A model generated the notes under the pieces. That model was not told where the DNA came from and searched no databases. It worked only from the letters and a program-made list of their open reading frames with translations. Positions 815 to 57,262 of a DNA stretch of 64,000 bases are shown here, in pieces. Origin of the DNA: Vicinamibacterales bacterium (lineage in GTDB: Bacteria; Acidobacteriota; Vicinamibacteria; Vicinamibacterales; UBA823); assembly GCA_036012125.1 (NCBI GenBank), contig DASCOS010000004.1, positions 154,094 to 218,093 of the forward strand, written 5' to 3'. The first letter of the stretch is position 1. Each line of letters starts with the position of its first letter. Made by a program: the position numbers and the translations under genes.

Positions 815-1351
815 TCACTGGCGGACATACTCAATGGCGAATTCTTTTAGCGCAGGGGACCGGAGACCAATCACCTCAGCTTCAGCCGTGGCGCTTTCAA
901 TATCCCAATTGTCAAGTTTGACCCGTTTGATCAACCACATTCCCCCAACGCGATTGGCTGACCCGCAGTGAATGAATGTCGGTTGATTATCCGGGTTGGC
1001 AATGACCTCAAGGAACTGTTCGGCAGCCCAAGCCCAGGTCTCAGAAGACCGAAATGGAATATGAAAATACTTCAATCCGAGTTCTGAGGCTTTTTCGGAT
1101 GCTTCACCAGGGTTGGTGGCGCCGTTTTCACCTTCGGTGCGGAAGTTGACAACGGATACAAACCCCCGCCGCCGCACTTCCTCGAGTGCTTCCAGTGTAG
1201 TGGCTCCAGCGCATGCGACTGTCGCATTCACTTGGGTGTAGTTTCGAATCCCCGGGATCTCTTCCTTTATCAGCTCTTGTGCGGTAAGGGAGATCGGGGT
1301 CATTAGAACGAGCATCAGAAACACGGAATGTGTAACGTTTTGAAATCGCAT
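815..1351 (-). CDS. Secreted DUF442-like / PTP-fold protein (putative phosphatase or sulfur-transferase-like)
   Basis: 178 aa. It has an N-terminal hydrophobic signal-like segment (VFLMLVLMTPISLTAQE) and a P-loop-like motif FIHCGSANRVGG. Overall it resembles the DUF442 'beta-lactamase hydrolase-like phosphatase domain' family. Confidence 0.5.
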   Translation of the reverse strand: MRFQNVTHSVFLMLVLMTPISLTAQELIKEEIPGIRNYTQVNATVACAGATTLEALEEVRRRGFVSVVNFRTEGENGATNPGEASEKASELGLKYFHIPFRSSETWAWAAEQFLEVIANPDNQPTFIHCGSANRVGGMWLIKRVKLDNWDIESATAEAEVIGLRSPALKEFAIEYVRQ

Positions 1352-1965: not shown

Positions 1966-2253
1966 ATGGCTCGACTATCGGCCGCAGCGATCACCGAACA
2001 ACTTGCGTCGCTCTCCGCTTGGATTCGTGACGGCCAGGCCATCCAGAGGGAGTTTACGTTCCCGTCGTTTTTGGAGGCTGTAGCGTTTGCGAATCGTGTG
2101 GCGATGGAGGCCGAACGTGCAGATCATCACCCTGACATTGTGATTCGCTTTCGGAGTGTCATGCTGGTCTACGTGACACATAGCGAGTCTGGACTCACCC
2201 AGAAGGACTTCGATGGAGCGCGGGTGGCCGACCGGGTAGCCGAAGCTCGATGA
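1966..2253 (+). CDS. Pterin-4-alpha-carbinolamine dehydratase (PCD/DCoH family)
   Basis: 95 aa. The motif FANRVAMEAERADHHPDIVIRFRSVMLVYVTHS (HHPD core) and the size are typical of PCD. Confidence 0.85.
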   Translation: MARLSAAAITEQLASLSAWIRDGQAIQREFTFPSFLEAVAFANRVAMEAERADHHPDIVIRFRSVMLVYVTHSESGLTQKDFDGARVADRVAEAR

Positions 2254-2267
2254 GAGGCTGACTGACT

Positions 2268-2786
2268 GTGCGGCTAAAGAAGACCTACAGTTCCCGAGAA
2301 GTCGCCGCGCTGACGGGGCTTTCTGCCCGCCAACTGCAGTGGTGGGACGCACGGAAACTGCTGACATCAACAGTGGCATCGCAGCGAACTGCTGCTGGGG
2401 GCTTCACTGAGCGGAGGTACTCTCCCGTCGAGTTGTACGAGCTCCTTGTGCTCGCTGACTTGCGCCGCCACGGCTTTTCCGTTCAAAAAATTCGTGCGCT
2501 GCTCAAAACACTGAAACGGCAATTCGACATACGGCTCTACGACGCCATCCGCGGTGGTGGGGAGATTACGTTACTGACCGATGGACGCGAGGTGTACGCA
2601 CGTACTTTGAAGGGGGAGTTCTACAATCTGCTGCGCGCGCCGAGTCAGCCTTTGCTGGTGCTTGGTGAAGGAGAAGATTTGAAGGAGTTCAGTACGCGAG
2701 CTCGCCCACGACGGTCCAAGAAGCGCCTCGCTGCGAGGCGAAATGCGACAAAGCCGACCAAAAAAACGAAGCGTCAGCGTTCCTGA
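2268..2786 (+). CDS. MerR-family transcriptional regulator with a basic C-terminal tail
   Basis: N-terminal HTH YSSREVAALTGLSARQLQWWDARKLL. Lys/Arg-rich C-terminus (RRSKKRLAARRNATKPTKKTKRQRS). Confidence 0.65.
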   Translation: MRLKKTYSSREVAALTGLSARQLQWWDARKLLTSTVASQRTAAGGFTERRYSPVELYELLVLADLRRHGFSVQKIRALLKTLKRQFDIRLYDAIRGGGEITLLTDGREVYARTLKGEFYNLLRAPSQPLLVLGEGEDLKEFSTRARPRRSKKRLAARRNATKPTKKTKRQRS

Positions 2787-2808: not shown

Positions 2809-3933
2809 CTACACAATCTTCCCACGCGCCTCGACTGGGAGTGTCTCGATGACTGTCCATCCATCGACGAGTTGGACAGCATCCACTAGGTTCGATACAA
2901 CGCACGAATGATTCGGCAGAACGCGTACGCGGTCACCAGGTTCTAGGCCTGTAGCGCCATTCTGCACTTCTACGACCCCGTGTTCTTCCGAAAGCCGCGT
3001 GATCTGCAGTGAGTCGTCTGGTGTTGTCTCGTCGAGAGTGGAAAAAACGGCGCCGTAGCCCACCGGGCGGACCATTCCACGACCGGTGTCTGAGGTAAGT
3101 GTCTTGCTACCGCAGTCGAGAACGATGCGGTTGCTTGCCGGCTTACTGACCACGGTCGCCATCACGGAGAGTGCGCAATCGTCGAGTGAGGCAGAGCCAA
3201 TGGCAACCTGGCTACGATCGTAATAGACGTAGTTGCCTGGCCGAAGCTCCGTAAGGTCAGGCTCTGAAGCGCTTAGCATTGCTGTGGCGGTAGAGCCGAC
3301 GCTAATTTCGTCGATTTTGACTTCAGCCTGTCGTGCCCCGTCAGCCAGCGTTCGTAGCGTCTCGGCTTCGTCCTTCGCTACGGCGGCCAGTTCCTCTGCG
3401 GAACCTACGTCGTAACACTGGCCGGCGTGACTGAGGAGTCCACGGAGTCGTAGTCCTGGCAGGGTAGTTACGTGTGAAAGAAACGCGACGGCCTGAGTCA
3501 TCTCGGGAGCAATGCCACACCGCTGATACCCGACGTCAACCTTGACGAGGACGTCGAGTTGCCGGTCGTATGCACACATCGCCTCGGACCACTGTTCAGC
3601 CACTGTTGGATGATCGATTGCAAGTGAAAGTTTTACACGGTCCATCAGTGCCATGACACGTGTGGCACTGAACGGATTGATTGGATAGGGCAACCGGATG
3701 TCGGAGATACCCGCGTCGGCAAAAACTTCCGCCTCGCTGACTTTCGCGCAGCAGATCCCTGCCGCACCTTGTTCGAGTTGCCACTTTGCAATCCGAGGGC
3801 TCTTGTGGGTCTTGGTGTGCGGTCTAAGCGTCAGCCCCCCTGATGTTGCGACGGTTTGCATTCGCTTGATGTTGGCCATAAGCCGGTCCCGATCGATGAG
3901 GACTTGCGGTGTGGGGAGTTCGGTCAATTGCAT
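2809..3933 (-). CDS. D-threonine aldolase / D-serine dehydratase-like PLP enzyme (alanine racemase N-terminal fold)
   Basis: 374 aa. TPQVLIDRDRLMANIKRM...LRPHTKTHKSPRIAKWQLEQGAAGICCAKVSEAEVFA matches the PHxKTHK PLP-lysine block of the DTA/DSD1 family. Confidence 0.7.
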   Translation of the reverse strand: MQLTELPTPQVLIDRDRLMANIKRMQTVATSGGLTLRPHTKTHKSPRIAKWQLEQGAAGICCAKVSEAEVFADAGISDIRLPYPINPFSATRVMALMDRVKLSLAIDHPTVAEQWSEAMCAYDRQLDVLVKVDVGYQRCGIAPEMTQAVAFLSHVTTLPGLRLRGLLSHAGQCYDVGSAEELAAVAKDEAETLRTLADGARQAEVKIDEISVGSTATAMLSASEPDLTELRPGNYVYYDRSQVAIGSASLDDCALSVMATVVSKPASNRIVLDCGSKTLTSDTGRGMVRPVGYGAVFSTLDETTPDDSLQITRLSEEHGVVEVQNGATGLEPGDRVRVLPNHSCVVSNLVDAVQLVDGWTVIETLPVEARGKIV

Positions 3934-3964
3934 GATGGCAATTATCCATTTCAGTGAGTCAGTA

Positions 3965-5548
3965 TTAGTAGATCCTTACCCGGCTCTGCTCTTTCAGAAA
4001 CTGCTGGACGTAGTAGGGCCCACCAGCACCGCGACCAGACGAGCCACTTGCTTTCCAACCACCGAACGGATTGATACCTGGCCAGGCGCCAGTTGTCGCG
4101 CCAGCCTGCCGGTTGGCGTAAACGACGCCAGCTTGGATTTCGTCGAAGAAATTGGCTATTTCATCCTCATCGCTGCTAAAAATACCAGCCGTTAAACCGT
4201 ATTCGGTCTTGTTGGCGAGCCGTATTGCTTCGTCAAACGACGTTACTTTACCCACGACAGTGATCGGGACGAACAGCTCATCGGTGAATAATCGGTGGCC
4301 GTTCGGTAAGCCATCAATGACGGTCGGTTCGAGAAAGTAGCCATGTCGAAAGGGCTCTTCGGTAATTCGACGCCCCCCGGTGAGGACCCGCCCGCCGTCG
4401 CGCTTAGCCTCTTCAATTGCCCGTTCATAAGTCTTAACCGCCGCTTCGTTGATGACAGGTCCCATCCAGACATCGCGCTCAAGCGGGTTACCAATCTTGA
4501 TCTTTCTGGTTTTCTCCACAAGTTCCTCGACGAACCTATCGCAGACATCGGTCGCGACGTACACACGAGAGCATGCGGAACATTTCTGGCCTTGGGCACC
4601 GAACGCCGAGCGCCACACACCTTCGGTAGCTTTATCCAGGTCAGCTGATGACATGACTAGAGTGGGATTCTTGCCTCCCATCTCGGTGATGACCGGGCGC
4701 GGAGCTGGACGTCCGCCGTTCTCACGGGACAGCATCATTCCAACTTCTTTTGACCCGGTAAAAACGATGCCGTCGATGTGTGCATTTTCCGCAATTTCCT
4801 GGCCGACTGAGTTTCCAGGCCCGGTTACAACGTTGAATACACCTGGAGGTACGCCGGCCTCGGCGGCGATATCGTAAAGCCTCAAACCGAGCCTTGGCGT
4901 ATCGCTAGCTGGTTTCAGCACGACGGTGTTCCCCGCGACAAGTGCGCCGCCCGCCGGACCTGCGGCCAGCGCCATGGGAAAGTTAAACGGGGAGATGACT
5001 GCCCAGACCCCATGAGGACGCATGACACTGGTGTTCTCTTCATTCGGCTCTAGTTTGTCCATCGTCTGGCAAAAGCCGTCGTGTGCCTCTATCTGATCGC
5101 AATAGTAGGTCATGAAATCGGCGGCTTCTTCTATATCGCCTACGCATTCAAGGCGATTCTTGCCAGTCTCAAAACCCATCCAGGCTGCTAGTTCCCAACG
5201 CTGGGCTCGAATGCCGTCCCCAATCTTACGGACTATAGCCACCCGCTCTCTCCATGATCGCCCACCCCAATCAGCCGCGGCTACGCGAGCAGCACGAACC
5301 GCATCGCGCACATGGTCGGCGGTACCCTTTTGAAACCGCGCCAAAACAATCCGCGTATCGTTCGGGCTTAAGTCTTCAAACTGTTCGGCTGATTCGATGG
5401 CCTCACCGTCAATGTACATTGGATAAGTTTTGCCTAGCTGCGCTTTGACCTGTTCGATCGCCTCGTCAATTCCAAGGTGAAGCGCTTCCATCTGGTCGGC
5501 GCTCATCGTCGCGTAGGTGATTTTCATCTCGGGTTTACTACCGCTCAT
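3965..5548 (-). CDS. pruA: L-glutamate gamma-semialdehyde (1-pyrroline-5-carboxylate) dehydrogenase, aldehyde dehydrogenase superfamily
   Basis: 527 aa. ALDH motifs FTGSKEVG and EMGGKNP are present. FGAQGQKCSACSRVYV (GQKCSA) is the variant I associate with RocA/PruA-type P5C dehydrogenases. Confidence 0.7.
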   Translation of the reverse strand: MSGSKPEMKITYATMSADQMEALHLGIDEAIEQVKAQLGKTYPMYIDGEAIESAEQFEDLSPNDTRIVLARFQKGTADHVRDAVRAARVAAADWGGRSWRERVAIVRKIGDGIRAQRWELAAWMGFETGKNRLECVGDIEEAADFMTYYCDQIEAHDGFCQTMDKLEPNEENTSVMRPHGVWAVISPFNFPMALAAGPAGGALVAGNTVVLKPASDTPRLGLRLYDIAAEAGVPPGVFNVVTGPGNSVGQEIAENAHIDGIVFTGSKEVGMMLSRENGGRPAPRPVITEMGGKNPTLVMSSADLDKATEGVWRSAFGAQGQKCSACSRVYVATDVCDRFVEELVEKTRKIKIGNPLERDVWMGPVINEAAVKTYERAIEEAKRDGGRVLTGGRRITEEPFRHGYFLEPTVIDGLPNGHRLFTDELFVPITVVGKVTSFDEAIRLANKTEYGLTAGIFSSDEDEIANFFDEIQAGVVYANRQAGATTGAWPGINPFGGWKASGSSGRGAGGPYYVQQFLKEQSRVRIY

Positions 5549-5569
5549 CTTCAGTTTCTCCTCGTCCCG

Positions 5570-7180
5570 TTAGTTCTTCCGCAGGTCCTTTAGAATCTCG
5601 CGACTCGCATTCAATCCGCAAGCGCCGGTTACCCCGCCGCCAGGGTGGGTACCCGCGCCGCAAAGGTACAGGCCAGCAACCGGAGTCCGATATTGGGCCC
5701 AACCGAGTGCCGGCCGCATTGTGAAGAGTTGGTCCAAGGTATGCTCGCCATGAAAAATGTGGCCGCCGGTTAGACCGTAGACCGTTTCCAGATCGACAGG
5801 CGTCAAGATCTGCCGATGCAAAATCCGGTCTTCAAGTCCAGGCGCGTAAGCAGTGAGTACGCGAATAACCCTGTCGCCGAGACCATCGCGAGCTATGTGC
5901 CAGTTCTCGTCACGCAAATGGTACGGGGCGAATTGCGCGCAGATCGACATAACGTGTTGACCGTCAGGTGCCAAGGTCGAGTCATTAACCGTTGGGATCG
6001 TCACGTCGAGATATGGAGACTCAGAATAGCCTCCGTACTTGGAAGCATCGAATGCCCTCTCGAGGTACTCCACGCTAGGCCCAATGTGAATCCGCCCACC
6101 GAGCGCGTTTGTTCGCTCCGTAGAAGTTGCCGAAGCCAAGGCCGTGAATTCCGGAAGAGCGTCGAGTGCCAGGTTAATCTTAGCCATGGTGCCGGCCGCT
6201 CGATATCCCTTGATGGTGGCCACGAACGCAGGTTCAAGAGCGGCTGCTGAAATCAGTTTAAGAAAGGTTCGCTTGGGATCGGCGCCCGACACAACAGTGC
6301 GAGCAGTAATCACCGTCCCATCACTGAGGACCACGCCGGCAACTACACCCTGCTGGACATCGATGTGAGTTACCTCAGTGCCGGTCCTGATCTCGACGCC
6401 GACGGTCTGAGCAGCCTTCGCTAAGCCCTCGCTCAGTGAGCCGGGTCCACCTCTCGTGGTGGTCGCTGTAGGAAGCACGTGACCCCCAAGTGCCTGCTGC
6501 AGGAGGAAAGCCATACCCGAACCCGCCGATTTTGGACCCAGGTTCATGCCGTAAATGCCGCGGGCGGCCACGATGGCTTGCAGCGCTTCGGTTTCAAACC
6601 AGTCGGCGACTATGTCGGCCACTGGCATTGCTGACCACCTGAGTAGTCGGAACATGTTTTGTTTGCCGAGACCGCGAAACCGTCGGCCCGCTCTAATTAG
6701 CTGCCAGACGTCGCTAACCTTAGGATGCTCGGTTGATGGAGGTGTGCGCCACAGGAAATCACGTAGCACGCTACCGATTTCATCGAGGCATTCACTGAAG
6801 GCAAGGTACTGTTTGCTGTCGCGTTGTGAAAATGCACTGATTGAGTCTGCGGCGCGAACCGGGTCAGCATGAAGTAGAAGGGTGTGGTGGTCCGGTAGTG
6901 GCGCGAAAAGTCTCACCTCGGGTTCCGTGAAGCGAACGCCATGATGATGCAGGGCAAGGTCGTCGACCACTTTAGGATGCAGTGGGCCCACGGCGTGCGC
7001 CAAAGCAGGACATTTAAAACCTGGGTAGAGGTCTTCTGTTACCGCGGCACCACCGACTCCGTTTCGGCGCTCCAGCACGAGCGTTCGTACGCCTGCCCTA
7101 GCCAGATAAAACGCCGTAACGAGCGCGTTATGACCACCTCCTACAATAATTGCGTCGTACGACTTCACAGTGGAATTCAC
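5570..7180 (-). CDS. FAD-dependent oxidoreductase, PYROXD2/CrtI-like (COG1233 'phytoene dehydrogenase-related'), paralog 1
   Basis: 536 aa. N-terminal dinucleotide fold YDAIIVGGGHNALVTAFYLARAGVRTLVLERRNGVGGAAVTE. C-terminal LYLCGAGTHPGGGVTGACGLNASREIL. Confidence 0.75.
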   Translation of the reverse strand: MNSTVKSYDAIIVGGGHNALVTAFYLARAGVRTLVLERRNGVGGAAVTEDLYPGFKCPALAHAVGPLHPKVVDDLALHHHGVRFTEPEVRLFAPLPDHHTLLLHADPVRAADSISAFSQRDSKQYLAFSECLDEIGSVLRDFLWRTPPSTEHPKVSDVWQLIRAGRRFRGLGKQNMFRLLRWSAMPVADIVADWFETEALQAIVAARGIYGMNLGPKSAGSGMAFLLQQALGGHVLPTATTTRGGPGSLSEGLAKAAQTVGVEIRTGTEVTHIDVQQGVVAGVVLSDGTVITARTVVSGADPKRTFLKLISAAALEPAFVATIKGYRAAGTMAKINLALDALPEFTALASATSTERTNALGGRIHIGPSVEYLERAFDASKYGGYSESPYLDVTIPTVNDSTLAPDGQHVMSICAQFAPYHLRDENWHIARDGLGDRVIRVLTAYAPGLEDRILHRQILTPVDLETVYGLTGGHIFHGEHTLDQLFTMRPALGWAQYRTPVAGLYLCGAGTHPGGGVTGACGLNASREILKDLRKN

Positions 7181-8799
7181 CTACCTGGAAATCTCCATTC
7201 CTTGAGAATCCGCTGCGCCGCGTTGCGCCCTGAGGCACCCATGATGCCGCCGCCGGGATGCGTGGATGAGCCGCAGAGATACAGGCCTCGAACCGGTGTG
7301 CCATAACGAGCCCAACCCGGAACCGGTCGTAGGAAAAATAACTGCTCTAGGGTCAGCTCGCCTTGGAAAATATTGCCCTCAGTCAGGCCAAACTCACGCT
7401 CGAGATCAAGTGGAGTGATGACCTGTCGATGCAGGATGATGTCTTTGAGGTTCGGCGCGTAGTTAGCGAGCGTGTTAACCACACAGTCACCAAATTGCTC
7501 CCTTTGGTCATCCCAAGTGCCAGAACTTAAGTGGTATGGCGCGTACTGGACGAAGCAGGACAGGATGTGTTTGCCTGGAGGTGCCATTGACGGATCACTC
7601 AGAGTGGGAATGACCATGTCAATATAGGGATGCCGAGAATATTGTCCGTATTTGGCGTCGTCATAAGCACGTTCCATGTAGTCGACATCTGGCGAAATCG
7701 TAAGTCCTCCTCGCAAGTGCGGACCTGCGCCAGGCAGGCTCGTAAAATTGGGTAATGCGTCGAGTGCCAAATTGACCTTGCCGGACGAACCGCGCAGCTT
7801 GTAACGACTAACGTCTTCAACGAAGTCGTCCGGTAGCAGGTCTTTCCCGACCATCTTGAAGAATGTTAGGCGTGGGTCAACGCTCGATGCAACGATGTCA
7901 GCGCGTAATTCATCTCCGTTCTCTAACACTACCCCAGAGGCCTTTCCGCGCTTGACAAGTATCTGTGCGACTGGTGTTCCTGTACGGATCTCGGCTCCAG
8001 CTTCTCGAGCCGCGGCAGCGATCGCATTCGAGATTGCACCAGTGCCACCTCGAGGAAGGCCCCACGATCGAAAGGCACCGTCGATCTCTCCCATGTAATG
8101 ATGCAGGAGGACATAGGCCGTACCGGGTGAGCGCACACCGAGAAATGTCCCGGTTATTCCCGAGGCCGCCATTGTGGCCTTTAGGACGTCGGTTTCGAAC
8201 CATTGGTCTAGGAAGTCGACAGCGCTCATCGTCCCTAATTGCACCTGCATCTGCTGGAAGGAACGTGGAAGCTTTCGGAAACGGTTACCGATTGCCAGCA
8301 GTTGCAGAAGCGCTCGCGGGTCGCGTGACGTTGGATCGCGCGGCGCCATTTCAAGCATTGGCTTGACGAACCGACCCATGTCGACCATCGTCTTGCTGTA
8401 GTCCTCGTAAGCTTCGGCATCGCGTGGAGAATGACGAGCGATCTCCCTGTAGGTTTGGGCATGGTCATTGACGCGCCAGAGATAATCGCCGTTCGGCATT
8501 GGTGTGAACGTGCCATCGAGAGGAAGAATCTCGAGGCCGTGCCGCGCCAGTTCAAGTTCACGGATGATTTCGGGCCGAAGAAGTGAAACGACGTAGGAGC
8601 ACACTGAGAACCTAAAGCCTGGAAAGATTTCTTCAGTGACGGCCGCGCCACCCACTAATCGACGGCGCTCGAGAACTAGCGTTTTCTTTCCACTGCGCGC
8701 GAGGTAGGCTGCAGTGACTAAGCCATTGTGCCCACCACCGATGATGATTGCGTCGTATGTGCTTGCCATTGCTCGAGTCGACGGCTCGTGGGGAGCCAC
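7177..8799 (-). CDS. FAD-dependent oxidoreductase, PYROXD2/CrtI-like, paralog 2 (4-nt overlap with paralog 1)
   Basis: 540 aa. YDAIIIGGGHNGLVTAAYLARSGKKTLVLERRRLVGGAAVTEEIFPGFRFSVCSYVVSLLRPEI...LDQWFETDVLKATMAA...LYLCGSSTHPGGGIMGASGRNAAQ. As far as I can recall the human PYROXD2 sequence, this is collinear with it. Confidence 0.75.
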   Translation of the reverse strand: MAPHEPSTRAMASTYDAIIIGGGHNGLVTAAYLARSGKKTLVLERRRLVGGAAVTEEIFPGFRFSVCSYVVSLLRPEIIRELELARHGLEILPLDGTFTPMPNGDYLWRVNDHAQTYREIARHSPRDAEAYEDYSKTMVDMGRFVKPMLEMAPRDPTSRDPRALLQLLAIGNRFRKLPRSFQQMQVQLGTMSAVDFLDQWFETDVLKATMAASGITGTFLGVRSPGTAYVLLHHYMGEIDGAFRSWGLPRGGTGAISNAIAAAAREAGAEIRTGTPVAQILVKRGKASGVVLENGDELRADIVASSVDPRLTFFKMVGKDLLPDDFVEDVSRYKLRGSSGKVNLALDALPNFTSLPGAGPHLRGGLTISPDVDYMERAYDDAKYGQYSRHPYIDMVIPTLSDPSMAPPGKHILSCFVQYAPYHLSSGTWDDQREQFGDCVVNTLANYAPNLKDIILHRQVITPLDLEREFGLTEGNIFQGELTLEQLFFLRPVPGWARYGTPVRGLYLCGSSTHPGGGIMGASGRNAAQRILKEWRFPGR

Positions 8800-8830
8800 C
8801 GGAAGTTCGCATTGTAAGCGATTATAAAAC

Positions 8831-8860
8831 TTGTCGGAGTCGTTCGATGGTTTCTATAAT
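8831..8860 (+). promoter_or_regulatory. Candidate sigma70-type promoter for the GcvT-like gene; a mirror TATAAT on the minus strand at 8821-8826 could serve the flavoprotein operon
   Basis: TTGTCG (8831-8836), an 18-nt spacer, then TATAAT (8855-8860), 42 nt before the GTG at 8902. The minus strand reads TATAAT at 8821-8826, upstream of the start at 8799. This is a by-eye call in an AT-rich divergent spacer. Confidence 0.3.
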
Positions 8861-8901
8861 CCAAGGTTAACTGCTGCGCCTGTCGCAGAGTAGGAGTCGT
8901 T

Positions 8902-10116
8902 GTGCCTATCGGATCCGCGGTTCATGACCGCACTTTAGCGCTCTGCAAGAGCTTAAATTATCGCGAATGGTCTGGTTTTTTCTCCGTTAGCGCCTACGAA
9001 GCCCATCACGAACATGAGTATGCGGCCATCCGCACGTCTGCAGCGTTAATCGACATTTCACCCCTCTACAAGTACTTAATTACAGGCAAAGAGGCGACAG
9101 GGTTCGTCAATCGCTTAATCACCCGAGATGCAACAAAGCTTGCCGTAGGCCAGGTTGCGTATACCACTTGGTGCGACGAGGACGGTAAGGTCATTGATGA
9201 TGGGACGGTTTCGCGTCTCGGTGATGACCGGTATCGCTGGACTGCCGCCGATCCCAACCTCCGATGGTTTCAAGGGAACGCTGGCGGGTTCGACATGACT
9301 ATTCGCGACGTGTCGGAGGAGGTCGGTGCCCTCGCGTTACAGGGCCCGACATCAGCCGACGTGTTGAGGCAGGTTGCTGATGTGGACATCGACGCGCTGA
9401 AATACTTCCGCGTCACTAGTGGTGCTATTCGGAATGTGTCGGTCGATGTTTCCCGCACTGGATACACTGGCGACTTGGGCTACGAGATCTGGATGCCTTG
9501 GGAAGACGCAGGCAGGGTATGGGATGCACTGGTCGATCACTCGCAGGATTACCTCGTGCGGCCGGCCGGCATGCTAGCCTTGGACGTGGCTCGAATCGAG
9601 GCTGGTCTATTGCTGACCGAAGTCGATTTCTTTGGCAGCCGGAAGGCGCTCATTCCGTCACAGCGATATTCACCATTCGAGATGGGACTTGATAGGTTGG
9701 TAAGTTTAGACAAGTCTGAATTTGTTGGTCAGCCTGCACTTCGAAATGAGCGGCTTGCTGGACCACCACGAAGGATTGTGGGTCTCGAAATTGACTGGCC
9801 GGCGATTGAGGTGCTCTTTGAGGCAGTTGGACTTCCACCAGAGCCGCCAATAGTGGCATCTCGGGAGGCCGTCCCGGTCTACAGCGGCGGAGAACAGATT
9901 GGCAAGTTAACCTCGATGGTCTGGTCGCCTGTACTAAAAAAACTGATTGCCTTGGCGACAGTCCACCGTAACTACTCGGCTTCCGGCACCAAAATGCTGA
10001 TCGAATTCACCGTTCAGGCAGTTCGACACAAGGTGGAGGCAGTGGTGGTGCCGACGCCGTTCTTCAGTCCTTCGCGAAAAACTGCAACCCCACCGGCCAC
10101 CGCCGAATCGAGCTAG
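8902..10116 (+). CDS. GcvT-family aminomethyltransferase-like (folate-binding) protein
   Basis: 404 aa with a GTG start. HEHEYAAIRTSAALIDISPLYKYLITGKEATGFVNRLITRD...YTGDLGYEIWMPWEDA are typical GcvT/DmdA/sarcosine-oxidase-alpha-type blocks. Confidence 0.75.
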   Translation: MPIGSAVHDRTLALCKSLNYREWSGFFSVSAYEAHHEHEYAAIRTSAALIDISPLYKYLITGKEATGFVNRLITRDATKLAVGQVAYTTWCDEDGKVIDDGTVSRLGDDRYRWTAADPNLRWFQGNAGGFDMTIRDVSEEVGALALQGPTSADVLRQVADVDIDALKYFRVTSGAIRNVSVDVSRTGYTGDLGYEIWMPWEDAGRVWDALVDHSQDYLVRPAGMLALDVARIEAGLLLTEVDFFGSRKALIPSQRYSPFEMGLDRLVSLDKSEFVGQPALRNERLAGPPRRIVGLEIDWPAIEVLFEAVGLPPEPPIVASREAVPVYSGGEQIGKLTSMVWSPVLKKLIALATVHRNYSASGTKMLIEFTVQAVRHKVEAVVVPTPFFSPSRKTATPPATAESS

Positions 10117-10199: not shown

Positions 10200-10643
10200 A
10201 TGTCTCAAGCACAACCACAAAACTACGCCAATCACGCTCGGATGGTTCCGGCCTTTCACTTTGTCGCACTCCCGATTTTAGCGATCAACTTGTTTTGGTC
10301 CGTGGGTCAAGTCGTGACGGCCGGCCTTTCATTCGAGACCTTACTGGCGGTAGGCGTCGCACTCGCGCTTATAGTCATCGCGTTGTGCGCCAGACTGTTC
10401 GCTCTCTGGGCACAGGACCGCGTCATTCGCCTCGAGATGCGGTTAAAACTGACGGAAGTTCTTTCGGACGAACTTAAGCCGAGGATTGGTGACCTGTCGA
10501 CATCGCAACTTGTGGGACTGCGTTTTGCCAGTGACGCCGAGCTGCCGGGTCTCGTGCGCAAGGTGCTCGAGGGTAGCCTGAGTGACCAGAAAGCAATCAA
10601 GCAGGCAATCACGGCCTGGCAAGCAGACCATCAGCGGGTCTAA
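10200..10643 (+). CDS. Conserved membrane protein of unknown function (2 predicted TM helices)
   Basis: 147 aa. AAGGAGG lies upstream of the ATG. Two hydrophobic helices are followed by a soluble C-terminal domain. I recognise no catalytic motif. Confidence 0.45.
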   Translation: MSQAQPQNYANHARMVPAFHFVALPILAINLFWSVGQVVTAGLSFETLLAVGVALALIVIALCARLFALWAQDRVIRLEMRLKLTEVLSDELKPRIGDLSTSQLVGLRFASDAELPGLVRKVLEGSLSDQKAIKQAITAWQADHQRV

Positions 10644-10675: not shown

Positions 10676-11482
10676 ATGACTCAGGTAACCATCACGGCAC
10701 CGGTGCGTCGTTTTGGAGGGACCTCACGGGGGGACGCGTGGTGGCTACAGCCCCTTGCGGTTGCGGCCGGGCTGGGCCTCTTCGTTGCGTATTCAACCTG
10801 GGCTGCCTTTCAGGCCGAGTACTATCACACGGGACCTTACTTATCGCCGTTTTACTCGCCCGAGCTATTTGGTGATTCTCCGCACTCGTGGCTTGGACCG
10901 AAGCCAGCCGCTTGGCCATCTTGGTTACCGTGGTCTCCAGCGTTCCTCATTCTCGGCGTCCCAGTGGGGTTCCGCCTGACCTGCTACTACTATCGCGGTG
11001 CTTACTACAAAGCATTCTGGGCCGACCCGCCGAACTGTGCTGTCGGCGAGCCACGGGAATCATACTTGGGCGAGCGCTCGTTTCCGCTCATTATCCAAAA
11101 CGTGCACCGATACTTTCTCTACCTCGCGCTGGCATTCATTTTGGTTTTAGCCTACGACGCCTGGCAGGGACTATGGTTCGTGGATCCAGCAACGGGCGCC
11201 ACTACCCTAGGTGTCGGCGTGGGCAGTCTCGTGCTTATTCTCAATGTCATCCTGCTTGGCGGCTACACGTTTGGTTGCCACTCGCTACGGCACCTTATCG
11301 GTGGGCACAGAGATCAGTTGTCAGGAATCAATCGATTGCGTCAATCAACGTATGACTGTGTGAGTTGCTTCAATCAACGACACATGCTATGGGCGTGGAT
11401 GAGTCTGGCGTGGGTCGGCTTTACTGATTTTTATATCCGGATGTGTGCAATGGGTATATGGGTTGATTTCCGGCTGTTGTGA
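10676..11482 (+). CDS. Succinate dehydrogenase/fumarate reductase membrane anchor, single large subunit
   Basis: 268 aa, multi-TM and His-rich (HRYFLYL, CHSLRHLIGGH). It sits immediately upstream of sdhA/sdhB. The gene order and size resemble my recollection of the mycobacterial Sdh1 anchor-flavoprotein-FeS arrangement. Confidence 0.6.
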   Translation: MTQVTITAPVRRFGGTSRGDAWWLQPLAVAAGLGLFVAYSTWAAFQAEYYHTGPYLSPFYSPELFGDSPHSWLGPKPAAWPSWLPWSPAFLILGVPVGFRLTCYYYRGAYYKAFWADPPNCAVGEPRESYLGERSFPLIIQNVHRYFLYLALAFILVLAYDAWQGLWFVDPATGATTLGVGVGSLVLILNVILLGGYTFGCHSLRHLIGGHRDQLSGINRLRQSTYDCVSCFNQRHMLWAWMSLAWVGFTDFYIRMCAMGIWVDFRLL

Positions 11483-11519
11483 TGAACCTACGATGCGCTA
11501 ACGTCGGCCAAGGTCGCTG

Positions 11520-13325
11520 ATGGACTATCAAACCTACGAACATGACGTGGTGGTGATTGGTGCGGGCGGTGCTGGGCTCCGGGCCGCGATCGAGTTATCG
11601 GCGTTGGGGGTTTCGGTTGGGGTGGTCTGCAAGTCACTGCTAGGTAAGGCGCACACGGTGATGGCTGAGGGTGGCGTAGCTGCTTCACTTGGCAACGTTG
11701 ATAATCGTGACGCGTGGGGTGTGCACTTCGCAGACACGATGCGTGGCGGGCAGTATATGAACAATGCGCGGATGGCGGAGCTTCACGCCAAGGAGGCCCC
11801 GGAGCGGGTCCGCGAGTTAGAAGCTTGGGGCGCCCTGTTTGACCGGACGGCAGACGGTCGTATTTTACAGCGCAATTTCGGCGGGCATAAATACCCTCGG
11901 CTCGCACATGTTGGTGACCGAACAGGCTTGGAGATGATCCGTACGCTCCAGGACCATGGGATACATCAAGGGATCGATGTGCATATGGAATGCACAGTCC
12001 TTGCTCTTCTTAAGGACGGCGATCGTGTTGTCGGGGCCGTAGCCTACGATCGTGAGCGGGGCCGTTTCCGCGTTTTCCATGCACGTGCAGTGGTGCTAGC
12101 CACTGGCGGTATCGGCAAGGCCTATCGTGTTACGAGTAACTCGTGGGAGTACACCGGGGATGGGCATGCCCTTGCTTACAATGCAGGTGCAGACCTTATC
12201 GACATGGAATTCGTCCAGTTCCATCCGACCGGGATGGTGTGGCCCCCAAGCGTAAGCGGCATCCTGGTAACGGAAGGTGTGCGCGGAGAAGGTGGCGTTC
12301 TGAAAAATAGGGACGGTCACCGTTTCATGTTCGATGAAATTCCTGATTTGTACAAGAATCAGACGGCCGACAACGAAGAGGAGGGTTGGCGCTACACCCA
12401 AGGCGACAAGGATGCGCGGCGTCCTCCTGAGCTGCTAACTCGAGACCACGTGGCGCGTTGTATTGTTCGCGAGATCCGGGAAGGACGAGGTAGTAAGCAC
12501 GGTGGCGTTTATCTCGACATTGCGTGGATTAAAGAGCGATTGTCGAACGGCACCGAACATATCAAGAAGAAGTTGCCGAGTATGTACCACCAATTCAAAC
12601 AGCTGGCGTCAATTGATATTACGCAGCAGCCGATGGAGGTTGGTCCAACCACCCATTACGTTATGGGCGGTGTGCGTGTCGATGCCGATACACAGATGTC
12701 AAACGTACCTGGTTTATTTGCTGCCGGCGAGTGTGCGGGCGGGTTACACGGCGCCAATCGTCTAGGCGGCAACTCACTGTCCGACCTACTTGTGTTTGGT
12801 AAGCGTGCGGGCGAGTACGCCGCAAAGTTTGCGAAAGAGCATAAGCCGGGCGCTGTGAACGCCGATCAGGTGGAGGAGGTAGCCCGGCGTGCGTTGGAGC
12901 CGTTCTCTAGAGAAGGCGAGAGCCCCTATAAGATTCAGCAGGACCTCCAGCAAACGATGCAAGATTTGGTTGGGATCAGTCGTCAGGACGTGGAGATGCG
13001 GAGAGCGCTGGATGAACTCGCAAACCTCCGGGCGCGTGCAGGTTCGGTTGGCGTCATAGGGAATCGAGAGTACAACGCTGGTTGGCACACCGCGCTTGAT
13101 TTACCGCATCTGTTAACCGTTGCGGAGGCTATTACCCGTGCTGCCGTGGAGCGTCGTGAGAGCCGTGGGGCGCACTTTCGCGAAGACTATCTTGCCAAGG
13201 ACGAAGGGTTGGGTCAGGTGAGTTTACTGGTTCGAAAGTTAGGCGATGGGTCGATGCAGGTTGTCCGCGAGCCTATTTCTGAACTGACGCCTGAGTTGGC
13301 CAAGATCGTTGACGACAACAAGTAG
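11520..13325 (+). CDS. sdhA: Succinate dehydrogenase/fumarate reductase flavoprotein subunit
   Basis: 601 aa. DVVVIGAGGAGLRAA, HTVMAEGG (FAD-His), HPTG, HYVMGGV and RESRGAHFRED. Confidence 0.9.
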   Translation: MDYQTYEHDVVVIGAGGAGLRAAIELSALGVSVGVVCKSLLGKAHTVMAEGGVAASLGNVDNRDAWGVHFADTMRGGQYMNNARMAELHAKEAPERVRELEAWGALFDRTADGRILQRNFGGHKYPRLAHVGDRTGLEMIRTLQDHGIHQGIDVHMECTVLALLKDGDRVVGAVAYDRERGRFRVFHARAVVLATGGIGKAYRVTSNSWEYTGDGHALAYNAGADLIDMEFVQFHPTGMVWPPSVSGILVTEGVRGEGGVLKNRDGHRFMFDEIPDLYKNQTADNEEEGWRYTQGDKDARRPPELLTRDHVARCIVREIREGRGSKHGGVYLDIAWIKERLSNGTEHIKKKLPSMYHQFKQLASIDITQQPMEVGPTTHYVMGGVRVDADTQMSNVPGLFAAGECAGGLHGANRLGGNSLSDLLVFGKRAGEYAAKFAKEHKPGAVNADQVEEVARRALEPFSREGESPYKIQQDLQQTMQDLVGISRQDVEMRRALDELANLRARAGSVGVIGNREYNAGWHTALDLPHLLTVAEAITRAAVERRESRGAHFREDYLAKDEGLGQVSLLVRKLGDGSMQVVREPISELTPELAKIVDDNK

Positions 13326-13340
13326 CTTGATGGAAACGAT

Positions 13341-14078
13341 ATGAGCACTGCGAGGTTCAAGATCTGGCGTGGCAACGCCGATGGTGGTGTATTCCAAGAG
13401 TATTCCGTTGAGGTTGCCGAAGGGATGGTTGTACTCGACGTTGTGCTCAAGATTCAGGCTGAGGAGGCGAACGACCTCGGGGTACGCTGGAACTGTAAGG
13501 CAGGGAAATGCGGCTCGTGCTCAGCCGAGGTCAACGGTAATCCTCGGCTCATGTGCATGACCGGCATGGACACGATTCCGACCGATCGACCGATCACGGT
13601 TGAACCAATGCAGACCTTTCCGTTAATCAAGGATCTGGTGACTGATGTCTCATGGAATTTTAGTGTCAAGCAGGGAATCACGCCGTTCACACCTCGGCCA
13701 GCCGATGCTCACGACGGAACCTGGCGGATGCAGCAGCGCGATGTGAATCGGGTTCAGGAATTTAGGAAGTGCATTGAGTGCTTTCTTTGCCAGGACGTCT
13801 GTCACGTCCTGCGCGACCACCGGAAGCATGATGAGTTCATCGGGCCGCGCTTCTTTGTCCACGCGGCGGCTTTGGAAATGCACCCGCTTGATGTTGCTGA
13901 CCGCGTTGAGGAGCTTGCTCAGACCGAGGGGATCGGCTACTGCAATATCACGAAGTGCTGCACCAAGGTCTGTCCTGAAGAGATTACGATCACTGATAAT
14001 GCAATCATACCGCTCAAGGAACGCGTGGTTGACCGCCTTTACGACCCACTTTCGAAACTCTTGCGGATATTTCGATAA
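13341..14078 (+). CDS. sdhB: Succinate dehydrogenase/fumarate reductase iron-sulfur subunit
   Basis: 245 aa with three Cys clusters: CKAGKCGSCSAEVNG...C, CIECFLCQDVC and CNITKCCTKVCP. Confidence 0.9.
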   Translation: MSTARFKIWRGNADGGVFQEYSVEVAEGMVVLDVVLKIQAEEANDLGVRWNCKAGKCGSCSAEVNGNPRLMCMTGMDTIPTDRPITVEPMQTFPLIKDLVTDVSWNFSVKQGITPFTPRPADAHDGTWRMQQRDVNRVQEFRKCIECFLCQDVCHVLRDHRKHDEFIGPRFFVHAAALEMHPLDVADRVEELAQTEGIGYCNITKCCTKVCPEEITITDNAIIPLKERVVDRLYDPLSKLLRIFR

Positions 14079-18071: not shown

Positions 18072-19424
18072 ATGACGATTCCGGCCACCCTGCGACGCAC
18101 TCTCGGCAAATGGGACCTAGTGGCGATTGGTGTCAACCAGGTGATCGGCAGCGGCATCTTCCTGCTTCCGTCTCGCGTCACCGCGGAGCTCAATGCCTGG
18201 AGTGTTTTGGCCTTTATCTTAGCTGGCATAGCATCATTGCTCATCGCTCTCTGCTTTGCTGAGGTGGCTAGTCGTTTTGAGATCACGGGCGGACCCTACG
18301 TCTACACTCGCGCGGCGTTTGGCCGCCTCGTCGGGTTCGAAGTGGGTTGGATGCAGTGGGTGACACGGATCACAAGTTGGGCGGGCGTTGCCAATGGTAT
18401 TCCACTAGCGCTGGGATTCTACATTCCGGCGATGACCAGTGGTGTACCGCACGCGCTCTTTATCGTTGGGCTCTTCAGTCTGCTCGCGTATATCAATTTA
18501 TTGGGGGTGCGACAGAGCGCGTGGGCCATCAATTTTTTTACTATCAGCAAGCTGCTGCCGTTGGGAGTGTTCATCTTGGTTGGCCTGTTCTTCTTGAAGG
18601 CCGAGCCGTTCATGACTTACGCCCCAGTGTCGTGGCCTCAGGCTTCGGCTGCCGGCTTACTACTGATCTTCGCGTTTGGCGGTTTTGACGTCGTGACTGT
18701 CCCGGCGGGTGAAGCATCGAATCCACGCGGGCAGGTACCATTTGCCATGGTTACGACGATCATCACAGTTACTTTGGTTATGTTGTTGGCGCAAGTAGTA
18801 GCGATGGGGACCTTACCTGGGCTGAGCACATCCGCGACCCCTCTAGCTGACGCGGCTTTCGTCTTCTTAGGCGCTGGTGGTGCATTGATGATCGGACTTG
18901 GGTCAGTTGTATCGATGACAGGCAATAACGCCGGCCAGGTGCTCACCTCGTCTCGGATGCTGTTCGCCTTAGCCGAACACGGCGAGCTACCACCGCAGGT
19001 TGCGTATGTACACCCTCGCTATCGCACACCGTCAGTCTCGATTCTGGTCTCCACGGGGATTGCTATGACGCTGGCACTATCGGGCTCGTTCGTGGCGCTG
19101 GCAACGGCCAGTGCGGTAGCTAGGCTCATTACCTATACGGGGGTGGCGGCCGCCACCCTGCGTCTACGACGCCAGGAATTTCAGGGGAGTGTTCGTTCGC
19201 CGACTTTCCGCACACCGGTAGGCCCACTTGTCCCCGTCCTTGCCATTGTGGTGTCACTTGTAATTCTCGTTGGCGCATCGCGCGAACAGTTGATGGGTGG
19301 TGCTTTAGCGTTGGCCGTAGGGATGATTGTGTTCTTGTGGAACGACCGTATTAACGGCGGGCCGGGCGCACAGCAGACGGTATCTCACGAATCAGCGGTA
19401 ACGTGGAATCGTGGCTCGGAGTAA
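18072..19424 (+). CDS. APC-family amino acid permease
   Basis: 450 aa, about 12 TM segments, N-terminal LGKWDLVAIGVNQVIGSGIFLLP. Likely co-functional with the preceding dpaL-like gene. Confidence 0.85.
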   Translation: MTIPATLRRTLGKWDLVAIGVNQVIGSGIFLLPSRVTAELNAWSVLAFILAGIASLLIALCFAEVASRFEITGGPYVYTRAAFGRLVGFEVGWMQWVTRITSWAGVANGIPLALGFYIPAMTSGVPHALFIVGLFSLLAYINLLGVRQSAWAINFFTISKLLPLGVFILVGLFFLKAEPFMTYAPVSWPQASAAGLLLIFAFGGFDVVTVPAGEASNPRGQVPFAMVTTIITVTLVMLLAQVVAMGTLPGLSTSATPLADAAFVFLGAGGALMIGLGSVVSMTGNNAGQVLTSSRMLFALAEHGELPPQVAYVHPRYRTPSVSILVSTGIAMTLALSGSFVALATASAVARLITYTGVAAATLRLRRQEFQGSVRSPTFRTPVGPLVPVLAIVVSLVILVGASREQLMGGALALAVGMIVFLWNDRINGGPGAQQTVSHESAVTWNRGSE

Positions 19425-57187: not shown

Positions 57188-57262
57188 GGCGGTATCGTCT
57201 AGGGGTCAGGATGCGTGGTTCTCAGCCACGAGACCGGGGTTCGAATCCCCGTACCGCTACCA
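57188..57262 (+). tRNA. tRNA-Glu (anticodon CUC), CCA encoded
   Basis: Hand-folded cloverleaf. Acceptor GGCGGTA/TACCGCT (G1:U72 wobble), D-arm GTCT-AGGGGTC-AGGA, anticodon stem CGTGG/CCACG with loop TT-CTC-AG, T-arm CGGGG-TTCGAAT-CCCCG, and 3' ACCA. Confidence 0.85.

Follow-up and report, generated by a model that had tools for sequence, protein, structure and literature searches.

Two PYROXD2-like flavoproteins and a GcvT-like protein form a conserved bacterial gene trio, a candidate tetrahydrofolate-coupled amine N-demethylase

In the flavoprotein N-demethylases DMGDH, SARDH, DMGO and SoxABDG, an enzyme dependent on flavin adenine dinucleotide (FAD) oxidises an N-methyl group and a module with the GcvT fold passes the one-carbon (C1) unit to tetrahydrofolate (THF); sox operons are, in addition, accompanied by the formyl-THF deformylase PurU. 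FAD-dependent amine oxidation is also the means by which LSD1 removes lysine N-methyl groups, with release of formaldehyde, while PYROXD2 is a mitochondrial flavoprotein whose biallelic variants cause severe infantile metabolic disease. In trimethylamine N-oxide (TMAO) demethylase (Tdm), a 2026 cryo-EM study described how formaldehyde from the catalytic core is channelled to a THF domain and converted there to methylene-THF (PMC13619132). Here, we describe a gene trio found in a 64,000-nt stretch of a Vicinamibacterales genome (GTDB lineage Bacteria; Acidobacteriota; Vicinamibacteria; Vicinamibacterales; UBA823; assembly GCA_036012125.1, contig DASCOS010000004.1, positions 154,094 to 218,093 of the forward strand; hereafter "the window"). 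The trio comprises two paralogous PYROXD2-like flavoprotein genes, flavB and flavA, and a divergent gene for a GcvT-like protein, and it may encode a THF-coupled amine N-demethylase that lies outside the families listed above.

Conservation of the gene trio

In the window, flavB (7177..8799, minus strand) encodes a B-type, i.e., PYROXD2-type, FAD oxidoreductase with Pfam Amino_oxidase, NAD_binding_8 and DAO domains. It is followed by flavA (5570..7180, minus strand, GTG start), which encodes an A-type FAD protein of the Amino_oxidase/CrtI superfamily and a divergent paralogue of FlavB. On the opposite strand, 8902..10116 (+) encodes a predicted stand-alone GcvT-family folate-binding protein of 404 aa (GCV_T and GCV_T_C, E = 2.8e-58). 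A preliminary description of this DNA, made from the sequence alone, had listed these three genes together with two further minus-strand genes downstream of flavA, one for a dehydrogenase and one for an enzyme resembling D-threonine aldolase and D-serine dehydratase (D-TA/DSD-like). All five open reading frames (ORFs) were recovered at exactly the coordinates given there, each with strong domain matches, as were the divergent orientation of the GcvT-like gene and the 4-nt flavA/flavB overlap, in which the flavB stop and the flavA start share GTGA.

We evaluated the conservation of this neighbourhood by tblastn with the window proteins. A scan with one genome per species yielded 80 loci, nearly all labelled Acidobacteriota (one metagenome-assembled genome was labelled Chlamydiota), which together with five earlier loci formed an acidobacterial set of 85 (82 of them non-redundant) from the classes Vicinamibacteria, Blastocatellia, Terriglobia and Thermoanaerobaculia. 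flavA lay directly downstream of flavB in all 76 informative loci, and a GcvT-like orthologue (59–75% identical) was found in 64 of 73, being upstream and divergent in 63, with a median gap of 277 nt to flavB. FlavB was 71–79% identical across the four classes, FlavA merely 45–61% in the same loci, and the outer flanks differed from locus to locus. The conserved unit is the trio of flavB, flavA and the GcvT-like gene, not the five-gene cluster.

Outside this set, a plasmid protein search returned homologues with 52–53% identity, occurring twice per record, from Alphaproteobacteria. In Rhizobium sp. SL42, Shinella zoogloeoides, Parasedimentitalea marina and Fuscovulum ytuae, a flavB-like gene, a flavA-like gene and a gene annotated as "aminomethyltransferase family protein" follow each other in this order, co-directionally and with ends that abut or overlap (by 4–14 nt); the best plasmid matches to the window GcvT-like protein were exactly the genes beside these flavoprotein pairs. 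A metagenome scan seeded with the plasmid proteins added 80 further loci, the soil and peat subset of which belongs to the Steroidobacteraceae (Gammaproteobacteria). Across such proteobacterial-type loci, the second flavoprotein gene followed the first in 60 of 60 cases, and the GcvT-like gene came third in 51 of 51. Since the trio is divergent in Acidobacteriota and forms a single operon in Proteobacteria, its adjacency has outlasted a rearrangement between lineages. Gene-neighbourhood conservation, which the preliminary description had proposed as a check of its reading, was strongly positive overall, i.e., in three lineages and two gene arrangements.

Operons of the alphaproteobacterial type also hold a small ORF of ~80 aa (SGRxRYGAAMYF...G.IS.E.LE.YR.C..D), located after the GcvT-like gene or at the operon end (L092:16383-16628, L086:16388-16639 and 13 other proteobacterial-type loci). 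We considered and rejected it as a fourth subunit, given its absence from Acidobacteriota and Steroidobacteraceae and its lack of a Pfam match.

The GcvT-like partner proteins of both phyla have in common an insertion of ~9 residues and a C-terminal R(K/R)TATP tail, both of which are absent from Tdm, DmmD and one GcvT-annotated gene. For the flavoproteins, a neighbour-joining tree (31 taxa, 200 bootstraps, distance method only, no CrtI outgroup) united the B-type proteins of both phyla in one clade with 100% bootstrap support and contained a 94% split, with B-type proteins, single-copy homologues and PYROXD2 on one side and all A-type proteins on the other, PYROXD2 grouping more closely with single-copy bacterial homologues (88%) than with FlavB. 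An A-type gene was never seen without a B-type gene in the loci examined, while in Shinella sumterensis a single-copy homologue without A-type partner adjoins gcvT. The partner-gene matches, the common insertion and tail, and the B-type clade point to a co-evolution of the three proteins; from these matches, the insertion and tail, and the tree split, it follows that both the flavoprotein duplication and the three-gene association are old.

The flavoproteins, their folate-binding partner and their genomic context

Aligned end to end, FlavA and FlavB share 44% identity. The preliminary description had noted a collinearity with eukaryotic PYROXD2, and this was borne out by mouse PYROXD2, which aligned with FlavB at 42% identity over 545 columns (423 bits) and with FlavA at 36% (a human PYROXD2 sequence served only as bait to fetch authentic named PYROXD2 proteins for comparison). 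FlavB keeps the FAD motifs GxGxxG...E, GG and HPGGG, the last of which it shares with PYROXD2 along with YVLLHHxMG, and the FAD motifs are retained in FlavA too. The best NCBIfam match of the pair is the CrtO ketolase model (NF045689), which aligns over the full length at 321 and 251 bits (cut-off 1000); for crtI_fam (TIGR02734) the scores were 138 and 118 bits (cut-off 238), and for the soxB model 30.6 bits (cut-off 529). An AlphaFold2 model of FlavB (pLDDT 72, pTM 0.79) adopts the CrtD/CrtI and amine-oxidase fold, with CrtD (4rep, TM 0.75) and CrtI as best structural matches at a structure-based identity of 17%, followed by NicA2, 6-hydroxynicotine oxidase, MAO and putrescine oxidase, all at ~15–19%. 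Because of the PYROXD2 alignment, the CrtO and CrtI scores, and the matches of the model, we assign the pair to PYROXD2-like members of the CrtI/amine-oxidase superfamily and not to the carotenoid enzymes. Public annotations call such genes "phytoene dehydrogenase-like" or "NAD(P)/FAD-dependent oxidoreductase", and NCBIfam (June 2026) holds no specific model for the flavoprotein pair or for its GcvT-like partner. The wider flavoprotein family comprises ~3,159 clusters at 50% identity (E ≤ 1e-30).

Both Pfam domains of the GcvT-like protein scored above their gathering thresholds (GCV_T 197.6 bits, GCV_T_C 52.7 bits), and the models for genuine GcvT were missed (NF001567, 218 vs. 300 bits; TIGR00528, 164.5 vs. 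235.85 bits). In NCBIfam it scored best against the C-terminal half of TMAO demethylase, and among solved structures the THF domain of that enzyme (9q59, 175 bits) came closest; the folate domains of SoxA, DMGO and DMGDH were matched too. For Tdm, the folate contacts R480, F582, F672 and K782 have been named (PMC13619132). The equivalents of R480, F582 and K782 are conserved in the GcvT-like protein as R, F and a basic residue, respectively, and the DDGT motif is kept. A canonical glycine-cleavage T-protein was ruled out by the sub-threshold scores, and no gcvH or gcvP was identified among the annotated recurrent ORF clusters, which hold flavoproteins, transporters, Rieske oxygenase and PurU. 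Based on these resemblances, we propose that the GcvT-like protein serves as the partner that captures the C1 unit or formaldehyde.

Recurrent accessory genes were identified by clustering the ORFs of the 82 non-redundant acidobacterial loci. APC permeases recur in 36 and 17 of these, and a Rieske oxygenase alpha subunit in 29, the nearest family being GbcA, the glycine-betaine monooxygenase (217 bits, below cut-off). PurU, above its cut-off, is found in 21 loci, where in Terriglobia it directly follows flavA; most loci of this class carry the trio with no Rieske gene within 10 kb, yet with PurU adjacent. Blastocatellia instead have an L-threonine-aldolase/GntG-like aldolase dependent on pyridoxal phosphate (PLP) directly after flavA (13 loci, e.g., L015:6492-7535). 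In 25 Terriglobia loci, PurU is itself followed by a ~500-aa protein with no Pfam or NCBIfam match (e.g., L059:14651-16156).

Proteobacterial-type loci carry a different but related set. A PotF/PotH-type ABC transporter and one or two GbcA-like Rieske oxygenases are each present in 20 of the 22 long loci, a HemL/GntE-like class-III transaminase (omega-transaminase) stands directly upstream in 40 of 61, and a TetR regulator and a PuuC/betaine-aldehyde-type dehydrogenase are recurrent. Subsets of these loci add a carnitine 3-dehydrogenase-like gene (586 bits vs. a cut-off of 592), a crotonobetainyl-CoA dehydrogenase-like gene, an acyl-CoA ligase, and a flavoprotein resembling old yellow enzyme and trimethylamine dehydrogenase. 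Likewise, the gcvT-adjacent homologue of Shinella sumterensis lies in a carnitine-like operon with an enoyl-CoA hydratase, an acyl-CoA ligase, a BKACE gene and a 3-hydroxyacyl-CoA/carnitine-dehydrogenase-like gene. No genes for electron-transfer flavoprotein were seen in these contexts. Overall, every accessory context is one of methylated or quaternary amine uptake and breakdown, or of C1-THF recycling.

Links between the human PYROXD2 locus and methylated amines, which the preliminary description had mentioned, were confirmed in published association studies. Urinary trimethylamine and plasma dimethylamine both associate with the locus, lower expression going with higher trimethylamine (PMC3169529), and a single common missense variant accounts for 50%, 48% and 21% of the plasma variance of N6-methyllysine, N6,N6-dimethyllysine and N-methylpipecolate, respectively (PMC8109053). 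Further associations with methylated lysines and N-methylpipecolate have been reported (PMC7878905, PMC13352909). The substrate and reaction of PYROXD2 are described as not established (PMC8777681, PMC13352909).

Among the 150 best representatives of the family, one eukaryotic homologue connects this flavoprotein type to formaldehyde: P0433 (L175:1437-3887, 816 aa) combines, in a single intact ORF, a mitochondrial-type presequence, a glutathione-dependent formaldehyde-activating (GFA) domain that exceeds its gathering score, and a PYROXD2-type flavoprotein sharing 47% identity with mouse PYROXD2. Its contig has 41% GC and eukaryote-like neighbours. This GFA-PYROXD2 fusion is a lead that hints at formaldehyde, as the bacterial module does.

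Proposed chemistry, competing explanations and local genes

From genomic context and homology, we infer that the trio is a flavin-dependent, THF-coupled N-demethylase whose flavoprotein family differs from that of DMGDH, SARDH and Sox, an assignment that we hold to be slightly better than an even bet. One or both flavoproteins would act on a tertiary or secondary methylamine, oxidising its N-CH3 group to an iminium, and the C1 unit would leave as formaldehyde or iminium to be captured on THF held by the GcvT-like partner, yielding 5,10-methylene-THF and the demethylated amine. Where a GbcA-like Rieske oxygenase is present, it would first turn a quaternary amine into a tertiary one; this step is placed ahead of the flavin step because a flavin can oxidise an amine only if its nitrogen carries a lone pair. 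THF would be regenerated by PurU together with enzymes of central folate metabolism, and the demethylated product would be consumed by the transaminase and aldehyde dehydrogenase in Proteobacteria or by the PLP aldolase in Blastocatellia. Substrate candidates are N-epsilon-methyl-lysines, by analogy to human PYROXD2; dimethylglycine or sarcosine, from the betaine and carnitine context; and N-methylated diamines, from the context of Pot-type uptake, omega-transaminase and aminoaldehyde dehydrogenase.

A more far-reaching version, which we put forward tentatively and with clearly less confidence, is that the trio represents an unrecognised class of THF-dependent amine N-demethylases with the PYROXD2-type subunit as the catalytic one, and that human PYROXD2 is the missing mitochondrial demethylase of free N-epsilon-methyl-lysines and related methylamines, passing formaldehyde to the folate or glutathione pool. 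In a still bolder sub-variant, the flavoprotein pair of Rieske-containing clusters would pass electrons from the tertiary amine to the Rieske enzyme responsible for demethylating the quaternary precursor, and this hand-over would account for the missing dedicated reductase gene.

Several observations weigh against an N-demethylase function. The functional assignment of every member draws on genomic context and homology; the characterised proteins that come nearest by sequence and fold, i.e., CrtI, CrtD and CrtO, have carotenoids rather than amines as substrates; and the AlphaFold2 model of FlavB is of moderate confidence only, as its pLDDT indicates. In the GcvT-like protein, the Tdm folate contact F672 is replaced by Arg. 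The GcvT-like gene is not nearby in 9 of the 73 acidobacterial loci, and the single-copy homologues of Sphingobium and Paracoccus aminophilus have no GcvT-like gene. The 64-kb window itself lacks a Rieske, PurU or threonine-aldolase-like homologue and has just a distant APC permease (18072..19424), and where a Rieske oxygenase is present it could supply the C1 unit in place of the flavoproteins. Finally, the GFA fusion is a single sequence and a singleton in the protein collection, and free GFA genes occur near the module in only 3 proteobacterial-type (type-2) loci, too few to be used as recurrent-neighbour evidence.

Among the alternatives, the one that survives best, although we consider it doubtful, retains the chemistry and divides it differently: FlavB and FlavA would be two separate demethylases that remove successive methyl groups, in the manner of DMGDH and SARDH, and share one GcvT-like protein. 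The conservation of all FAD motifs in both paralogues argues for independent enzymes, as do functional-looking single-copy relatives without an A-type partner, i.e., PYROXD2 and the gcvT-adjacent gene of Shinella sumterensis, and a transaminase that needs a primary amine directly upstream in 40 of 61 loci. A FlavA-FlavB complex is favoured instead by the old duplication and the strict, ancient gene order with its 4–14-nt overlaps, which are typical of subunits, by the confinement of A-type genes to loci with a B-type gene, and by the asymmetric conservation of the two proteins, which would fit a catalytic and an accessory subunit.

A less probable alternative places the origin of the C1 unit elsewhere. 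The flavoproteins would oxidise another bond, by amine C-N oxidation of the kind carried out by NicA2 or putrescine oxidase or by C-C desaturation, or exchange electrons with a Rieske oxygenase, and the GcvT-like protein would capture formaldehyde released by the latter. GbcA-type oxygenases do release formaldehyde and recur beside the module, where a dedicated reductase gene was not seen, and the fold neighbours of the pair include amine oxidases that do not demethylate. However, the trio occurs with no Rieske gene within 10 kb in most Terriglobia, with PurU adjacent, and also in the window; flavoprotein and GcvT-like genes are linked far more tightly than either is to Rieske genes; and, in the GFA-PYROXD2 fusion, formaldehyde is tied directly to the flavoprotein. 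We regard this alternative as unlikely.

The N-demethylase reading of the trio also leaves aside the two remaining minus-strand genes, which the preliminary description had joined to it in one pathway. The first (3965..5548) encodes an aldehyde dehydrogenase of 527 aa resembling pyrroline-5-carboxylate (P5C) dehydrogenase (Aldedh, E = 7.6e-142), lies 21 nt downstream of flavA and has a GGAG ribosome-binding site. Its best families are models of L-glutamate gamma-semialdehyde dehydrogenase, both below cut-off (PRK03137, 443 of 648 bits; TIGR01237, 416 of 660 bits), and its closest solved relatives are P5C dehydrogenase and PutA. The second (2809..3933), 31 nt further downstream, encodes the D-TA/DSD-like enzyme, a fold-type III PLP protein of 374 aa whose Pfam domains Ala_racemase_N and D-ser_dehydrat exceed their gathering scores (109.9 and 84 bits); its best solved relatives are the D-threonine aldolase 4v15 and D-threo-3-hydroxyaspartate dehydratase, and it reaches no specific equivalog (BhcC, 166 bits vs. 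a cut-off of 690).

Across the 85 acidobacterial loci, dehydrogenase orthologues accompany the trio in just three, namely the near-identical contigs L001 and L002 (79% identity) and L029 (63%), and D-TA/DSD-like orthologues in five (L001, L002, L008, L035 and L040), 6–10 kb away and with other genes between. All of these loci belong to the Vicinamibacterales, and unrelated or opposite-strand genes often intervene. In L001, a 2.7-Mb contig that is the closest long relative of the window, a transposase of the IS481 family (L001:13378-14526) lies between flavA and the aldehyde dehydrogenase gene, and an opposite-strand gene of the LOG/lysine-decarboxylase family separates the latter from the DSD-like gene. 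Because of these intervening genes, the four-gene run of the window is not a fixed operon.

A single pathway for all five genes, in which the product of a heteromeric demethylase is converted to P5C and then to glutamate with the D-TA/DSD-like enzyme involved, had in its favour the tight and apparently co-transcribed arrangement of the four minus-strand genes (spacings of -4, 21 and 31 nt), the closeness of the dehydrogenase to P5C dehydrogenases, and the different PLP aldolase after flavA in Blastocatellia, by which an aldolase step after demethylation may recur. Its two extra genes are nevertheless not conserved with the trio, the reason for which we rejected the pathway, the dehydrogenase stays below the P5C dehydrogenase cut-offs, and no proline dehydrogenase or ornithine aminotransferase lies nearby; we consider it very unlikely. 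Of the earlier reading, the tie between PYROXD2-like and GcvT-like proteins in a demethylation context is upheld by linkage and by the amine and C1-THF neighbours, and the route through P5C to glutamate is left unsupported. The dehydrogenase and D-TA/DSD-like genes are probable local additions to the transcription unit, serving to process the product in the window lineage, where both enzymes would possibly consume the demethylated amine.

Downstream of the flavoprotein pair, two unrelated types of PLP aldolase are thus observed, one of fold type I, in Blastocatellia, and one of fold type III, in Vicinamibacterales. Their presence may hint at a beta-hydroxy-alpha-amino acid as the demethylated product.

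Last, carotenoid or isoprenoid desaturases or ketolases of the CrtO/CrtI kind with an unrelated GcvT-like neighbour are a most improbable identity for the pair, one that takes up the CrtO, CrtD and CrtI matches reported above but runs against scores far under the family cut-offs, 17% identity compared to the 42% with PYROXD2, a GcvT linkage kept across phyla, and ~170 neighbourhoods with amine and C1 genes but without crt genes (the recurrent ORF clusters, drawn from 82 acidobacterial and 84 proteobacterial-type loci, included none), so that the pair stands apart from the bona fide carotenoid desaturases with which the preliminary description had considered it might cluster.

The intergenic region between flavB and the GcvT-like gene (8800..8901) is a putative control region. 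An ATG at 8769 is a likelier flavB start than the GTG at 8799 because a database protein 100% identical to FlavB (P0001, named NAD(P)/FAD-dependent oxidoreductase by NCBI and JGI, from a Vicinamibacterales metagenome-assembled genome) has 530 aa, the length given by the ATG, and with this start the region would reach 8770 and therefore widen to 132 nt. It contains a sigma-70-like site (TTGTCG-18-TATAAT, 8831..8860, plus strand, 10/12 matches) 41 nt ahead of the GcvT-like start. We regard it as a bare consensus match, such sites being no more numerous in the region than expected from shuffling. A riboswitch or known RNA was ruled out by an Rfam scan, which returned no family there and a tRNA (57188-57259) as its sole match in the window.

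Next to the GcvT-like gene, 84 nt downstream, lies a gene for a DUF6526 protein (10200-10643, plus strand, 147 aa) that is also found in L001 and L002 (59% identical) and is absent from the other loci. It is followed at 10676-14078 (+) by a succinate dehydrogenase/fumarate reductase operon. Of the genes in this operon, the first (268 aa) lacks a Pfam match, one encodes a flavoprotein that passes its NCBIfam cut-off with 967 bits, and the third ORF, at 13341-14078, shows 33% identity to the Fe-S subunit gene of L001. An operon of the frdABCD type flanks the cluster on this side in L001 too, but it is only 37% identical and organised differently. At the other end, a MerR-family regulator gene (2268-2786, +) is arranged tail-to-tail with the D-TA/DSD-like gene, a pairing (52–81% identical) that recurs in the Vicinamibacterales loci L001, L008 and L035, with MerR alone in L052. 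The ORF overlapping it (1975-2379, minus strand) matched no family and is unlikely to be a gene. Further out, a small protein with a BLH-phosphatase-like/sulfur-transferase-like domain (815-1351, minus strand; TIGR01244 family, below cut-off) is apparently unrelated to the cluster.

Significance and relation to described systems

Literature searches on PYROXD2 in demethylation and on the pairing of such flavoproteins with aminomethyltransferases returned no description of the module, and no paper was found that assigns PYROXD2 a reaction. In the proposed reading, the module works like the known THF-linked flavoprotein demethylases but outside their families, and it appears to be undescribed. 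If the proposed function is true, the module would be a new and widely distributed way to turn over methylated amines and route C1 units, its carriers being abundant soil Acidobacteriota, Steroidobacteraceae, rhizobia and marine Paracoccaceae. It also makes the function of human PYROXD2 testable, as an FAD-dependent oxidative N-demethylation with formaldehyde or methylene-THF as product.

The likeness to DMGDH, DMGO, SARDH and SoxABDG lies in the proposed logic of an N-methyl-oxidising FAD enzyme coupled to a GcvT-fold C1 carrier, as well as in the nearby PurU. Differences concern the flavoprotein and the folate-binding part: the flavoprotein of these enzymes has the DAO fold while that of the module has the CrtI/PYROXD2/amine-oxidase fold, and the folate-binding part, a fused domain or a portion of SoxA in the known systems, is a separate polypeptide here. 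The module, so far known from its genes, further has two paralogous flavoproteins and lacks equivalents of SoxD and SoxG. Because its flavoproteins are of the Amino_oxidase/CrtI type and score far below the soxB cut-off, the module is an analogue of these THF-linked N-demethylases and not a member of their group.

For the folate-binding partner, the closest relative is the THF domain of Tdm, whose catalytic part is a Zn/Fe DUF1989 domain, while DmmD of the DmmDABC system provides a precedent for a stand-alone GcvT-like subunit in methylamine demethylation, working there with a different oxygenase. Neither Tdm nor Dmm includes a PYROXD2-like flavoprotein, and the module partners form their own subgroup, marked by the insertion and the R(K/R)TATP tail.

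Regarding the flavoproteins, CrtI, CrtD and CrtO have superfamily and fold in common with the pair and differ in context, which for the pair is amine and C1 metabolism. LSD1/KDM1, MAO, NicA2 and putrescine oxidase share the Amino_oxidase Pfam family and are fold neighbours at an identity of only ~15–20%; unlike the module, these flavin amine oxidases work on their own, pass electrons to O2 or cytochrome c, and are not known to have a gene for a dedicated GcvT-like partner. PYROXD2 is collinear with FlavB over its full length, falls on the B-type side of the tree, although nearer there to the single-copy bacterial proteins than to FlavB, and is encoded at a locus tied to the levels of N-methylated amines. 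It is single-copy and mitochondrial, unlike the bacterial pair, and we know of no A-type partner or dedicated GcvT-like partner for it.

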